DNA from: an uncultured archaeon
GTDB lineage: Archaea > Asgardarchaeota > Heimdallarchaeia > Heimdallarchaeales > Kariarchaeaceae
Reading direction: 5' to 3'
DNA length: 57,759 bases
Assembly (NCBI GenBank): GCA_964645535.1
Contig: CAZYCQ010000002.1
Span: 63,851 to 121,609, forward strand
The position numbers and the translations under genes were made by a program. Under the pieces are notes generated by a model. The model was not told where the DNA came from. It saw only the letters and a program-made list of their open reading frames with translations, and made no database searches. Within the stretch, counting starts at the first letter, position 1. Each line of letters starts with the position of its first letter. This document shows positions 42,234-47,512 of this stretch, one piece after another.

Positions 42234-42926
42234 ATGGCGGATAAAATGCTTGAACTTAGAAACGTGACAAAAATCTATAACGAAGGCACAACACGGGAAG
42301 TTGTTGCTGCCAAAGACGTCAACATCACCATCTACAAGGGAGAAATGGTGGCTCTCATGGGGCCGTCTGGTTCTGGAAAGTCCACACTTCTCAACCTGAT
42401 TGGAGGTCTGACACCAGTGACCTCAGGTCATATCCTGATTGATGGTGTTGACGTTACAGATTTTGGAGATGAGCAACGGGCAGCCTTGCGAAGAGACAAG
42501 ATCGGATATATCTTTCAGCACTTCAACCTCTTGGATTTCCTCACTGCTGAGCAGAACGTAATGCTCCCACTGCTCATACAAGGGGAAACGTTTGCACATG
42601 CCAAGCGCAGAGCAGTCATGCTCCTTCGGGAATTGGGGTTGGGCGGAAGAATCGAACATTACCCAAATGAACTTTCAGGAGGACAGGAACAGAGAGTGGC
42701 TATAGCAAGGTCACTGATTACCCAACCGGCCATCATTCTCGGAGATGAGCCAACTGGAGATTTGGATCTGGAATCCTCAACAGATGTCATGCGACTGTTC
42801 AGGCGGGTAAACAAGGAAAATAAGCAAACATTGTTGCTTGTAACCCATTCAGAGTATATTGGCTCACTGTGTGATAGAATACTCCGAATAGATGACGGAC
42901 AGATTGTTGAGGAGGTGGAAAATTGA
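42234..42926 (+). CDS. LolD/MacB-type ABC ATP-binding protein
   Basis: GPSGSGKS, LSGGQEQRVAIAR, DEPTGDLD, VTH; AAGGAGG Shine-Dalgarno. Confidence 0.95.
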   Translation: MADKMLELRNVTKIYNEGTTREVVAAKDVNITIYKGEMVALMGPSGSGKSTLLNLIGGLTPVTSGHILIDGVDVTDFGDEQRAALRRDKIGYIFQHFNLLDFLTAEQNVMLPLLIQGETFAHAKRRAVMLLRELGLGGRIEHYPNELSGGQEQRVAIARSLITQPAIILGDEPTGDLDLESSTDVMRLFRRVNKENKQTLLLVTHSEYIGSLCDRILRIDDGQIVEEVEN

Positions 42927-44743
42927 CGACCATCATAGTTTCCCAACCCACGTTCAAACCATTGTTGAGATTGAATGAAGGCTATATCAAGGACATCAGG
43001 AAGATTCTAAAGAAAGGGTATCCTTTGATTGCCAGAAAGACAATTAGAGATCAGGAATTAAACCAGTTTCTCTTAGTCATGGCCAAGAATACCAAATCCA
43101 CAAAATTTGAGAAATTGCAGGGGAGAATCCGTAAAAGGCAAGAGCACCATAGATCACAGGTGATCAAGCAACTCCTGAGACTTTTCAGGAAGGATCCAGA
43201 ACTCCGTAATTCATTAGAGGTCTTTCTCAATCTAGAAAGACTTTATGATGCAAAATTTGAGGGAGCACGGTTAGCAGAGAAATTATCCGAAAAAGCAGCA
43301 TCCCAAGTCAACAGGCTATTGCAAATGGGAGAATTTGTCTTCATGGAAAATACAGACCGAAAAACGCTCTTCCTTCAAGACACGCAAATCCAATTTGCAG
43401 TTGGCGAAACCTACGAATCAGAAGAGATAATCGATGAGCTTGTCCTGACCGTTTTTGGAAGGGAGCATGTCACATTGATTGAGGAACAGATTCAAAAGAT
43501 GAGCAATACGTTGGCCAAGGTAATTGAGAAGATAAATGATTACATTAGAGAATTCAATCAAATTGCCAATGACAAAAAGAAAGAACAAATGGTTGAACTT
43601 TCCAGCGTCTTTCTCGGCAAGATTCTTGGAATCCGTGAACCATTGAATTTATCAAAGAAACAACTGTCACGGTATGTTTCGCTCAAAGATGAGATCACCG
43701 AGGAAGCGGACAGCCAAACTGGAAAGCAATTACTTGAACTGTTCAACCAATGGTATGAAATTGACAGGCTTCAAAGAACTATCTTGACCATTGAAGCCCT
43801 TGAGGATACTATTTCAGCAAATGTTGATTTGTTGAGGGACCTTCACAAGACCATTGAGGAATCCATTGTAGGAGGAAAGGACAGTCAGGTCATAGAGGAA
43901 TTCATTGGTTTCGCTATAGATACCTATGGAGCTTTTGAGGAATTCCGATTGGTCACGGAGGTATTCCAGGATATTCCCAGCTTCACCACCCTCAAAGGAG
44001 GATTGCTTGAAGATGTTGAAGAAGAGATTTTCACAATTCCAGAGGATGTGCTGATTCATGCAGACACCGTTTTCAAAAGCTTCCAGTTGGTCAGCAATAC
44101 AGTCTATGCCCTTAGGGGCATTGATCTGGAGGTGAAAAGAGGTGAATTTGTGGCCATCATGGGACCATCAGGATCTGGAAAAACCACCTTATTGAACATC
44201 CTTTCTGGATTGGATAAACCTGATAAAGGTAAGGTGATTGTTGATGGAATCGATATGAGAAAAGCCTCAGAAAAAACATTGGTGAAGTTCAGAAGGAATA
44301 CGGCTTCTTTCATCTATCAAAGCTATAACCTGCTGCCAGTATTGAATTCCCTGGAAAATGTTCGCCTTCCTTCCGATTTTGGAACCAATAATCCGATCGG
44401 CAATAAGACCAAACGTGCAATGGAATTGTTGGCAGAGGTAGGCCTTGAAAGATTCGCAAGAACCAGTCCCAAAAACCTCTCGGGAGGGCAGCAACAACGA
44501 GTAACCATTGCAAGATCCCTGCAAAACATGCCGAAGATCGTCTTCGCAGATGAACCCACAGGTGATCTGGATCATAAGACAGGAGACCAGATCATGGAAA
44601 TCCTCACCAACATCAATAAGGATCTTGGAGTCACCCTGCTTGTCGTCACCCATGATAGGAGAGTTGCGGAAATGGCGGACAGAATCGTACACATGCAGGA
44701 CGGAAAAATCATCAAAGAGGAAATCGTGAAAAAAGAGAAATGA
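42923..44743 (+). CDS. LolD/MacB-type ABC ATPase with an N-terminal helical/coiled-coil extension of about 370 aa
   Basis: C-terminal GPSGSGKT, LSGGQQQR, ADEPTGDLD, VTHD; N-terminal part is charged and helical with no TM. Confidence 0.9.
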   Translation: MTTIIVSQPTFKPLLRLNEGYIKDIRKILKKGYPLIARKTIRDQELNQFLLVMAKNTKSTKFEKLQGRIRKRQEHHRSQVIKQLLRLFRKDPELRNSLEVFLNLERLYDAKFEGARLAEKLSEKAASQVNRLLQMGEFVFMENTDRKTLFLQDTQIQFAVGETYESEEIIDELVLTVFGREHVTLIEEQIQKMSNTLAKVIEKINDYIREFNQIANDKKKEQMVELSSVFLGKILGIREPLNLSKKQLSRYVSLKDEITEEADSQTGKQLLELFNQWYEIDRLQRTILTIEALEDTISANVDLLRDLHKTIEESIVGGKDSQVIEEFIGFAIDTYGAFEEFRLVTEVFQDIPSFTTLKGGLLEDVEEEIFTIPEDVLIHADTVFKSFQLVSNTVYALRGIDLEVKRGEFVAIMGPSGSGKTTLLNILSGLDKPDKGKVIVDGIDMRKASEKTLVKFRRNTASFIYQSYNLLPVLNSLENVRLPSDFGTNNPIGNKTKRAMELLAEVGLERFARTSPKNLSGGQQQRVTIARSLQNMPKIVFADEPTGDLDHKTGDQIMEILTNINKDLGVTLLVVTHDRRVAEMADRIVHMQDGKIIKEEIVKKEK

Positions 44744-44850: not shown

Positions 44851-45630
44851 ATGAAGCTATTTCATGTTGAAGGGAAAGAGCTGAAACCAATGGAAGTTGG
44901 GGAAAACCTTGTCTTCCTAGATGGTGATGTCTATGTCATTGATGCAGAAGATAAGATCTGGATCTGGATTGGTCAGGATGCTTCTGTTGAGGAGGGAACC
45001 GTGGCCGCATGGGTCTCCAATAAGATGGATCAGGAACGGGATGGACTGCCAGACGTCATAACAGTCGTTCAAGGTGAAGAACCAGAGGAATTGCTTTCCA
45101 AGATTAACTTTACCGTCGAGGATGGAGATACTCCCGGATTTTTGAGACCAGCAGAACTGGATATGGTGGAATTCAAAATGTACCGTGTCTATACGGAGGG
45201 AGAAACGCCAGATTGGGATGAGGCGAAGGTAGAGGAAGTGCCGTTGGACAAAGCCTCACTTTCCTCAGATGATGTCTTTGTTGTGGATGGGAATGAAGTA
45301 ATCTATACTTGGATTGGAAAGAATGCCGCACGAGAAGAAAAGTTCCAAGGCCAGAAACTCATGCAAAAGATAGATGCAGATCGAAGTTACCTGCCAATTC
45401 AGGTCACCATTCAAGAAGGAGAAGGCACAAAGGCCGAAAAAGCATTTCTCAAGTTTCTTGAGGAGGTCAAGGGAAAAGGGCCGCAACTATCAGTTGAAGA
45501 CCAGCGTGAAGCCACCTACAAGCCGGAGGAGTACAAAACGGCAGAGGAACATAAGAAGGAAACACCAGACAAAATTGAAGCAAAAAAGAAGAGAGGATTT
45601 TTCAGCAGGTTGTTCGGACGTAAGAGCTAA
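44851..45630 (+). CDS. Two-domain gelsolin-family actin regulator
   Basis: Two gelsolin repeats (GDVYVID..IWIWIG..S..E..VQGEEP; LSSDDVFVVD..IYTWIGK..EE..QEGE) joined by the linker GDTPGFLRP. Confidence 0.9.
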   Translation: MKLFHVEGKELKPMEVGENLVFLDGDVYVIDAEDKIWIWIGQDASVEEGTVAAWVSNKMDQERDGLPDVITVVQGEEPEELLSKINFTVEDGDTPGFLRPAELDMVEFKMYRVYTEGETPDWDEAKVEEVPLDKASLSSDDVFVVDGNEVIYTWIGKNAAREEKFQGQKLMQKIDADRSYLPIQVTIQEGEGTKAEKAFLKFLEEVKGKGPQLSVEDQREATYKPEEYKTAEEHKKETPDKIEAKKKRGFFSRLFGRKS

Positions 45631-46376
45631 GTATGAGCCAATGAATTTAATGTGGACAGATAGCGGCTTGTACAACAGGAGTCCAGAAAAATGAAACCGA
45701 AATGGCTCTCCAAAAGGCGATTGACATGTTCAGTAGAGGAACAAATGTATTGGCCGGTTGCAATGGAAACCCCCCTTCTCAGAAGGTACTGGGTAGCCTC
45801 TTCACTGAAGTAACCATTATTGAAGTAGATCCAGAGAGAACTCCCTTTCAATGATTGGTAACCCTGAAGTTCGAGAAGGAATTCAGGTTGCTCCCTTAAT
45901 CTTGATGAAAGACCAATTCGATTTGCAAGCGCTGTGCTTCCTGCAAGCATGTCAATGGACTGAAACCGTCGAAATGCCTGTCTGAAGTTTTCATAGGCAT
46001 TTTTGACCAAGGCAACATCTTTGAGATATGCACTGTTTCCTCGAGTCAAAACGGTTGCAATACCAAAGGTTTCAAGTGTCTCTAGCTGGTGCAGCGCATC
46101 TGCCCTTTTCATTTGAACCGTGAGAAGCAAGCGGGAAGCCCAAGAATCCTTGAGTTGTTCCAAGAGGGAAAGAAGAGTCAAGTCCAATCGTTCATATTCT
46201 GCATCAACCAAGACCTTCAGGGAACCTGAATGAACAAGAACATCCTCAAGGGAGATTCCTAAGGCCTTGAGTCGTGAGAGCTTGACCGCGATACCTCTGA
46301 TATTTGTTCTTTTGAGTTCGGTTAATGTTTCATTTGTAGTTTCGCATGATTTGATAGTACATAGGAAGGTATTCAC
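45627..46376 (-). CDS. Hypothetical protein
   Basis: 249 aa ORF filling the gap; no family recognised. Confidence 0.6.
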   Translation of the reverse strand: MNTFLCTIKSCETTNETLTELKRTNIRGIAVKLSRLKALGISLEDVLVHSGSLKVLVDAEYERLDLTLLSLLEQLKDSWASRLLLTVQMKRADALHQLETLETFGIATVLTRGNSAYLKDVALVKNAYENFRQAFRRFQSIDMLAGSTALANRIGLSSRLREQPEFLLELQGYQSLKGSSLWIYFNNGYFSEEATQYLLRRGVSIATGQYICSSTEHVNRLLESHFGFIFLDSCCTSRYLSTLNSLAHT

Positions 46377-46594: not shown

Positions 46595-47512
46595 ATGTCT
46601 AAAGAATCCTCACCTCCGAAAAAGCAACGGATCAAACTGAAAACAACATTTTTCCGGGAACTCAAGCAGAAGGGAAGAAGGAGGGACTTGAAGGACATCA
46701 TCGATTTTCTGGAGATTGACAACATCATTGGACTCACAGATTTGGCCAAAGTTGTCGATATTCTTAACCAGTTTGCACAAAGTGAGAAGGATACTCTGAT
46801 AAGATCCTTGATAAGCCTTCCCAATAATTTCCAGAATGCCGTTGGGATGAAACTTGCAATTGAATCCAAGTGGTGGGAGACCAACCTTGAGGATACCAAA
46901 CAACTAATCAAGGAATTTGCCACACATAGGTTTTGGCAACTGAGAGACCTCGCAGCAGAACTCCTTGCAAACCTTGTGATTGATCTTGCTGAAGAGAAAG
47001 CGTTGCTTATGGAATATGCCACATCTTCAGATGTGAAAGAAAGGCAGATGGCAACCAATGCCGTAATGCTTATCCTTAAGCTTGAGGAATCAGTGGATCA
47101 ATACAATGAAGTCATTCTGACCCTTCTACGAGATGAGGATTTCCTTGTTCGTTATAGCCTTGCATATAATGGTTTTGGAGGAGTAGGACTGAAGTACCAT
47201 CCTGAGAGGACGATTGCATTCATTCAGGAGCTTGCAGAAAAGTATGACGAAGAGGAGATCAAAGAATGTGTTTTGGCAACACTCACCCATGATCTTGCTA
47301 AGGAATATCTTGAAGTGGCCTTGAAAATCCTTGCAACATACATGGAAGATACAAGAAATTCAATTCGAAGGATGCGCCATAGCGTCTTGCAGAATTTCGT
47401 GCATGAAAACAAAGAAGAGATCCAAAGATTTCTGGAAACGAGGATTGAATCAGAGGAAGCTTTGGATCATTGGGCAAACCTTGCTGCAGCAGGTCTATTC
47501 GATGAGCAATGA
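46595..47512 (+). CDS. HEAT-repeat protein (AlkD/DNA alkylation repair-like)
   Basis: All-helical repeats FWQLRDLAA, DVKERQMA, DEDFLVRYSLA, HPERT. Confidence 0.65.
   Translation: MSKESSPPKKQRIKLKTTFFRELKQKGRRRDLKDIIDFLEIDNIIGLTDLAKVVDILNQFAQSEKDTLIRSLISLPNNFQNAVGMKLAIESKWWETNLEDTKQLIKEFATHRFWQLRDLAAELLANLVIDLAEEKALLMEYATSSDVKERQMATNAVMLILKLEESVDQYNEVILTLLRDEDFLVRYSLAYNGFGGVGLKYHPERTIAFIQELAEKYDEEEIKECVLATLTHDLAKEYLEVALKILATYMEDTRNSIRRMRHSVLQNFVHENKEEIQRFLETRIESEEALDHWANLAAAGLFDEQ

Follow-up and report, generated by a model that had tools for sequence, protein, structure and literature searches.

The window analysed here, a stretch of 57,759 nucleotides from an uncultured archaeon of the Kariarchaeaceae (Heimdallarchaeia), encodes a two-domain gelsolin (2DGel) that ends in a polybasic, amphipathic peptide resembling the membrane-targeting sequence of MinD. 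We propose, with a probability of roughly 0.55, that this peptide is a weak, reversible membrane-interface anchor that would place Ca2+-regulated capping and severing of actin at the cell cortex. The protein itself is probably a gelsolin of the Heim2DGel type, which severs and caps actin filaments and binds actin monomers under the control of Ca2+, a control that we infer for this orthologue. Both the protein family and its tail were already known. The membrane-anchor reading is new relative to the literature searched (Asgard gelsolin together with amphipathic helix or membrane binding, and Heim2DGel), in which no such proposal for an Asgard gelsolin tail was found.

The gene is complete and occupies positions 44851..45630 (+), stop codon included, as an ATG-to-stop open reading frame of 259 aa. 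Pfam recognizes two Gelsolin repeats in it (PF00626; 95.9 bits against a cut-off of 21), which makes it a member of the superfamily. A search of the PDB with the window protein returned 46 gelsolin-family matches, headed by 7whf_G (E 4e-38, residues 2-257). The preliminary description, made from the sequence alone, had recognized a two-domain Asgard gelsolin at this locus, and the two PF00626 repeats, the match to 7whf and the domains of the AF2 model all bear this out. The source genome (3.6 Mb in 176 contigs, 89% complete, with the window at C2:63851-121609) yielded a single gelsolin-family locus, the one described here, together with just one eukaryote-like actin (455 bits). Close relatives come from MAGs of Heimdallarchaeota; two of the homologues carry the label Kariarchaeaceae.

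The domain structure was assessed on an AF2 model of the whole window protein, for which a 28-sequence alignment served as input. Gelsolin domain 1 (residues 1-92; 44851..45126, (+)) includes the Pfam stretch 22-82 and was modelled as strands and a helix over residues 2-90, with pLDDT mostly 78-89. Gelsolin domain 2 (residues 105-206; 45163..45468, (+)) includes the second Pfam stretch and has pLDDT 83-96; it is closed by an amphipathic helix (residues 194-206) that belongs to the fold. Among the 28 homologues D26 and D141, which lie in the GD.Y and DD.F strands, are invariant together with E163, and E48 is conserved in at least 90%. As candidates for the Ca2+-binding Asp/Glu pairs of the two domains, these four residues are putative Ca ligands.

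Between the domains lies the motif G-F-L-R-P-A (residues 96-101; 45136..45153, (+)), which aligns to GFLKHV of 7whf and corresponds in position to the WH2-like motif of Heim2DGel that runs up the face of actin. Residues D93-L98 are invariant in the alignment of 28 homologues; across the clade G-F-L is invariant, and the residues that follow it vary (RPA, VPA, KHA, KAA and others). The preliminary description had compared GFLRP with the actin-contacting linker of known Asgard gelsolins. That comparison holds for the position of the motif but not for its sequence, as L-R-P-A departs from the WH2-like inter-domain consensus L-[KR]-[KR]-[VT] of Heim and Thor 2DGels (PMC9433394).

Domain 2 is followed by a disordered, charged linker (residues 207-243; 45469..45579, (+)) of 37 aa, close to the 40 or so described earlier, with 8 K/R, 10 D/E and gaps in the alignment. 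The C-terminal 53 residues as a whole are not a folded domain: pLDDT is below 50 from residue 224 on, and the tail does not dock on the gelsolin domains in the AF2 model. A villin-type headpiece was not among the Pfam matches of the window protein at E up to 1, in keeping with the disorder of the tail in AF2. Thus, the architecture is that of the Heim2DGel type, with two gelsolin domains and then a disordered, non-gelsolin charged tail, as judged from AF2 and from the full-length alignment with 7whf. The tail opens with a conserved element, S-V-E-D-Q-R-E-x-x-Y-[KR]-P-E (residues 214-226; 45490..45528, (+)), seen in both the alignment and the AF2 model, where residues 215-221 form a short helix. 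Within the clade of the window protein, conservation reaches 90% or more at S214, E216, D217, R219 and E220. This element may be the counterpart of the first tail residues of Heim2DGel, which are ordered and bind Ca. It is absent from the LC_3-type protein.

Upstream of the gelsolin gene, at a distance of 107 bp, the window encodes a 606-aa ABC ATPase with an N-terminal arm of about 390 aa (42923-44743). This long-arm ATPase keeps its place before the gelsolin in same-genus relatives and also in genomes G003 and G007 (L042-L044, L025), and family f2, the sister family, instead has an ABC ATPase of plain type downstream of its tail-less gelsolin paralogue. On the other side a convergent 249-aa open reading frame without an assigned family (45627-46376, (-)) overlaps the gelsolin stop by 4 nt; it adjoins the gelsolin in same-genus relatives too and is followed by a HEAT-repeat protein (46595-47512). 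Since the two frames share only 4 nt, an overlapping reading frame is ruled out as the cause of the tail conservation described below.

The C-terminus of the window gelsolin reads KKKRGFFSRLFGRKS. Its last part, which we propose as the membrane-interface anchor (residues 245-259; 45583..45627, (+)), consists of the polybasic run K-K-K-R and the amphipathic stretch G-F-F-S-R-L-F-G-R-K-S, and the assignment draws on the sequence, on the orthologue matrix and on the likeness to MinD. The preliminary description had called this end MinD-type and had suggested a helical wheel as a check. On such a wheel F250, F251, L254 and F255 fall within an arc of 140 degrees. The membrane-targeting sequence (MTS) of E. 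coli MinD is KGFLKRLFGG (PMC5471200), and the corresponding 10-mer of the window protein is identical to it at 6 of 10 positions. The physical parameters match as well: the hydrophobic moment is 0.50 for the window 10-mer versus 0.55 for the MinD MTS, mean hydrophobicity is 0.40 in both, and the aromatic/aliphatic term on the Wimley-White interfacial scale is -3.95 versus -3.38 kcal/mol. By sequence, then, the peptide has the features of a MinD-type MTS, namely a short amphipathic stretch at the extreme terminus, a Phe/Leu face and a basic flank. AF2 did not predict a helix for the last 12 residues, a result that is neutral as to a helix on membranes.

Chance does not account for this end. Among 13,093 open reading frames of at least 70 aa in the source genome, only the window gelsolin has the strict motif at its C-terminus. 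Looser ends, defined as any cationic, aromatic C-terminal 14-mer, occur in 19 of 2,763 long open reading frames, many of them hydrophobic in appearance, like membrane segments. No protein of the source genome scored above the family cut-off for MinD, the best reaching 42.7 bits against 201.75 as distant ParA-like matches, and borrowing of the anchor from a resident MinD is accordingly rejected.

The basic flank of the window peptide is stronger than that of MinD, amounting to +6 over the last 14 residues. To our knowledge gelsolin does not dimerise, so the affinity for membranes could be marginal; the stronger polybasic run may offset the weakness of a single copy. For MinD itself, one copy of the helix does not by itself give significant binding, and dimerisation is required (PMC8155659). 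The earlier statement that the protein "anchors filaments at the cortex" thus goes beyond the evidence, a lone helix of this type being too weak for stable binding.

The distribution of the peptide was followed in a set of 86 archaeal two-domain gelsolins, with a tree built from the core domains only and the tails left out. The tree separates a Heimdall clade of 64 rows from a Thor/Loki-type clade of 22 rows (SH-aLRT 97). A polybasic-aromatic end peptide is present in 45/64 gelsolins of the Heimdall clade versus 0/22 of the Thor/Loki type. Ends of the GFFxRLF type account for 29 of the 64 rows and Trp-rich basic ends (for example, KKPWWKFW) for 15, and in one row the motif stands at the N-terminus; five rows carry a C-terminal domain of about 110 aa, one a Zn ribbon, and 13 are tail-less or have a tail of another kind. 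Absence of the tail from close orthologues, which had been named in advance as grounds for abandoning the membrane-tail idea, is thus not the case. The position matrix from the 29 orthologues is K-K-[KR]-G-F-[FWL]-[SA]-[RK]-L-F, and the motif recurs in orthologues with core identity as low as 37%.

At the same time, the sequence of the peptide drifts. In an orthologue with 93% identity, 4 of the last 15 residues differ and the character of the peptide is unchanged. Tail or linker length ranges from about 25 to 64 aa among Heimdall-clade orthologues, and the total tail length in the GFFxRLF class from 26 to 64 aa. Despite this variation the final 14 residues stay basic and aromatic, with a median charge of +3 to +5 and 3-4 aromatic residues. 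Moreover, the well-supported branches of the core tree can be explained only if Phe-type and Trp-type ends have replaced one another three times or more. Constant chemistry combined with drifting sequence would be easier to reconcile with a lipid interface than with a specific protein pocket.

Related lineages handle the C-terminus in different ways. The window's family has one tailed gelsolin gene as a rule, unlike the sister family f2 (L028-L041), in which most genomes encode two gelsolin paralogues, a tail-less one of 208 aa and a Trp-tailed one of about 226 aa that ends in a peptide of the K-K-W-W-Q-F-W-K type. This pairing suggests a division into soluble and anchored gelsolin pools. In other sister gelsolins (P0043:345-459, P0054:290-400, P0047:170-372) the short tail is replaced by another end module on a long Pro/Glu-rich linker, either a C-terminal domain of about 110 aa ending in G-H-x-Y-N/R or a Cys4 Zn ribbon. 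The alternative C-terminal domains matched no Pfam family, and ESM Atlas returned only unnamed stand-alone Asgard proteins or clusters. Since some lineages of the same family have exchanged the peptide for such modules, the anchor is not indispensable.

The peptide is also found in other positions and on other proteins. One gelsolin of the Heimdall clade, P0053 (L056:267-1043), begins with M-S-F-L-R-R-L-F-G-Q-R-K, continues with a Glu/Lys linker and the two domains, and lacks a C-terminal tail. A stop two codons ahead of the ATG and a GGAG preceding it favour this long form, and an internal GTG start is possible instead. An unrelated 99-aa family of Hodarchaeales (P0190-P0225; for example, L062:1231-1527) has a conserved K-K-K-G-[FL]-[FL]-x-R-L-F-G end. 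AF2 models the 99-aa protein with pLDDT 81 as four strands plus helices, and the end peptide follows directly after the fold. The family matched no Pfam entry, and a Foldseek search with the AF2 model gave no PDB match at E <=0.001; the best match, an IQGAP RGC domain, had E 0.044 and TM 0.44 and was rejected as an identification of the fold.

Similar termini are seen in the source genome. A small GTPase of the MMR_HSR1 type (C1:20163-20774; L054) starts with M-M-N-G-F-L-Q-R-L-F-T-K-K-K, just before the P-loop, and a winged-helix/PCI-like protein (C53:15928-16725; L055) starts with M-S-F-F-K-K-I-F-G-K. A 190-aa orphan (C10:34770-35342; L053) ends in a basic Phe/Trp peptide. A back-translated DNA pattern for G-F-F-x-R-L-F-G, applied to 83 genomes of the class, gave 9 matches versus 5 in the reversed control, which is near chance, and is too narrow to serve as a survey. 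The real terminal motifs among its matches were only those of the gelsolins of the source genome and of G007 and those of the 99-aa family. Because the peptide occurs at the N-terminus of P0053, on the 99-aa family and at the starts of the GTPase and the winged-helix protein, it appears to behave as an autonomous module.

Experimental data are available for the homologue from Heimdallarchaeota LC_3. This protein, Heim2DGel (PDB 7whf; Akil et al. 2022), severs, caps and sequesters actin under Ca2+ control (PMC9433394). In its crystal structure the first 10 residues of the tail are ordered and bind Ca, and the tail past them is disordered (PMC9433394). The isolated LC_3 tail neither associated nor co-sedimented with F-actin and did not bundle it, and in U2OS cells the Ca-dependent loss of F-actin was the same when the tail had been deleted (PMC9433394). 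A GFP-tail fusion and the full LC_3 protein were both excluded from the nucleus, which GFP alone enters, and the GFP-tail images were described solely in terms of nuclear exclusion, not of membrane staining (PMC9433394). The authors called the role of the tail "unclear" and suggested a part in cellular location, mentioning neither an amphipathic helix nor membranes (PMC9433394). Taken together, these findings speak against a latch and against actin binding by the tail, and they fit weak membrane association without being specific for it.

Lipid need not be the binding partner at all. The end peptide could instead be a short linear motif that docks on a protein (a membrane protein, an adaptor or a chaperone) common to several Heimdall families, in which case localisation would depend on that protein. 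Such a motif would account for the conservation of the peptide on an unrelated 99-aa family, immediately after the fold, and for the fairly regular core, K-K-[KR]-G-F-[FWL]-x-[RK]-L-F, of the 29 orthologues; the place of the gelsolin gene after the long-arm ABC ATPase in several relatives could be read in the same way. A pocket binder would not be expected, however, to undergo at least three replacements involving dissimilar Trp-rich peptides, as the tree requires, nor to vary freely at its non-hydrophobic positions. The pattern is that of a known lipid-binding helix, and no candidate receptor was identified. We consider docking on a protein unlikely, although it leads the alternatives.

A related idea keeps the lipid but turns the peptide into a regulatory switch, such that anionic lipid, much like phosphoinositides bound by eukaryotic gelsolin, would cause uncapping by releasing gelsolin from actin, or would inhibit severing near the membrane. 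Here the lipid-binding evidence for an anchor counts equally, and a human gelsolin segment, QRLFQVKGRR, shares with S-R-L-F-G-R-K of the window protein its R-L-F plus basic cluster character (PMC545074), although the likeness spans only 3-5 residues. It is hard to picture how actin would be displaced by a peptide that sits on a flexible spacer of 25-64 aa, far from the actin-binding surfaces, and that in P0053 is N-terminal; moreover, activity of the LC_3 protein in cells was unaffected by loss of the tail (PMC9433394). A switch of this kind seems to us improbable, and ranks behind docking on a protein partner.

Finally, the tail could act on actin or on gelsolin itself, either as an extra F-actin-binding site, as the basic, Phe-ending C-terminus of the villin headpiece does, or as a latch holding the protein shut when Ca is absent. 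The family offers precedents for both in the C-terminal latch helix of vertebrate gelsolin and in the actin-binding headpiece at the C-terminus of villin, and K-K-x-K-G-[LF]-F presumably resembles the end of that headpiece. Against this, Pfam found no headpiece domain, AF2 leaves the tail undocked, and the N-terminal placement in P0053 together with the variable spacer opposes a fixed intramolecular geometry. The LC_3 tail, moreover, showed neither F-actin association nor bundling and could be deleted without effect on Ca-dependent F-actin loss (PMC9433394). The preliminary description had itself raised the latch or actin-binding helix as the alternative to a membrane tail, and in light of these results we regard it as very improbable.

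A weak membrane anchor, the reading that we prefer, could work as follows. The end peptide would be unstructured in solution and would partition into the anionic cell membrane on its cytoplasmic side, with Lys and Arg binding head groups and the Phe/Leu face inserting. The linker would serve as a flexible, charged entropic spacer between the domains and the anchor peptide. Because one such helix is expected to bind weakly, attachment of the gelsolin would be reversible. Gelsolin, and any barbed ends or actin monomers that it holds, would thus be biased toward the cortex, near the entry of Ca2+, and not fixed there.

Coupling of actin to the membrane in Asgard archaea bears on protrusions and on crawling motility (PMC13716822). 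So far there has been no named linker between the eukaryote-like actin of these organisms and the membrane, and the gelsolin family offers a concrete candidate; a link of the window gelsolin itself to Asgard protrusions is speculation. The presence of tail-less and tailed paralogues in one family and of other end modules elsewhere suggests that Heimdall lineages divide the work, and the swapped modules would point to regulated placement of actin turnover before the origin of eukaryotes. A broader reading, which we offer tentatively and which is more doubtful than the anchor itself, sees the ancestral heimdallarchaeial gelsolin as a peripheral membrane protein. The cationic-aromatic end peptide would then exemplify a portable membrane-targeting code of general use in these archaea, usable at either terminus and common to small GTPases and other families, by which Ca2+-gated capping and severing of eukaryote-type actin would be organised at the cortex. 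On this broader reading, such a code would represent a prokaryote-style answer to the problem of actin-membrane linkage, which eukaryotes later built from other parts.

Among known systems the closest is Heim2DGel, which has in common with the window protein the two gelsolin domains, the inter-domain GFL motif and the charged tail. The alignment with 7whf reaches both C-termini and pairs the terminal peptide of the window protein with K-K-K-G-F-F-G-R-L-F-G-R of 7whf. On the other hand, core identity is just about 37-39%, the window protein has L-R-P-A where Heim2DGel has L-K-H-V, an insert in domain 1 distinguishes the two, and Heim2DGel is without the S-V-E-D-Q-R-E element. With the E. coli MinD MTS the peptide shares its place at the extreme C-terminus, the glycine-bracketed core G-Phi-Phi-x-[KR]-L-F-G and the basic flank. 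The MinD MTS is a transplantable module, and the window peptide type is likewise portable. The peptide may function as a MinD MTS does. Its carrier, however, is an actin regulator and not a ParA/MinD ATPase, so that ATP-driven dimerisation and the avidity of two helices do not apply; the sequence is too short to separate common descent from convergence. In FtsA, SepF and MreB a short terminal amphipathic helix likewise brings a filament system or its regulator to the membrane. Those proteins tether filaments of FtsZ or MreB, whereas the cargo proposed here is a eukaryote-type gelsolin acting on eukaryote-type actin. Vertebrate gelsolin, too, contains a basic, R-L-F-containing peptide that binds anionic lipid, the PIP2-binding segment 2 (residues 160-169 of the human protein; PMC545074). 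The two differ in that segment 2 is located within the G1-G2 region and controls uncapping, whereas the window peptide hangs on a spacer at the terminus, and the likeness is one of a few residues; still, segment 2 indicates that contact with lipid is an old theme of the gelsolin family.
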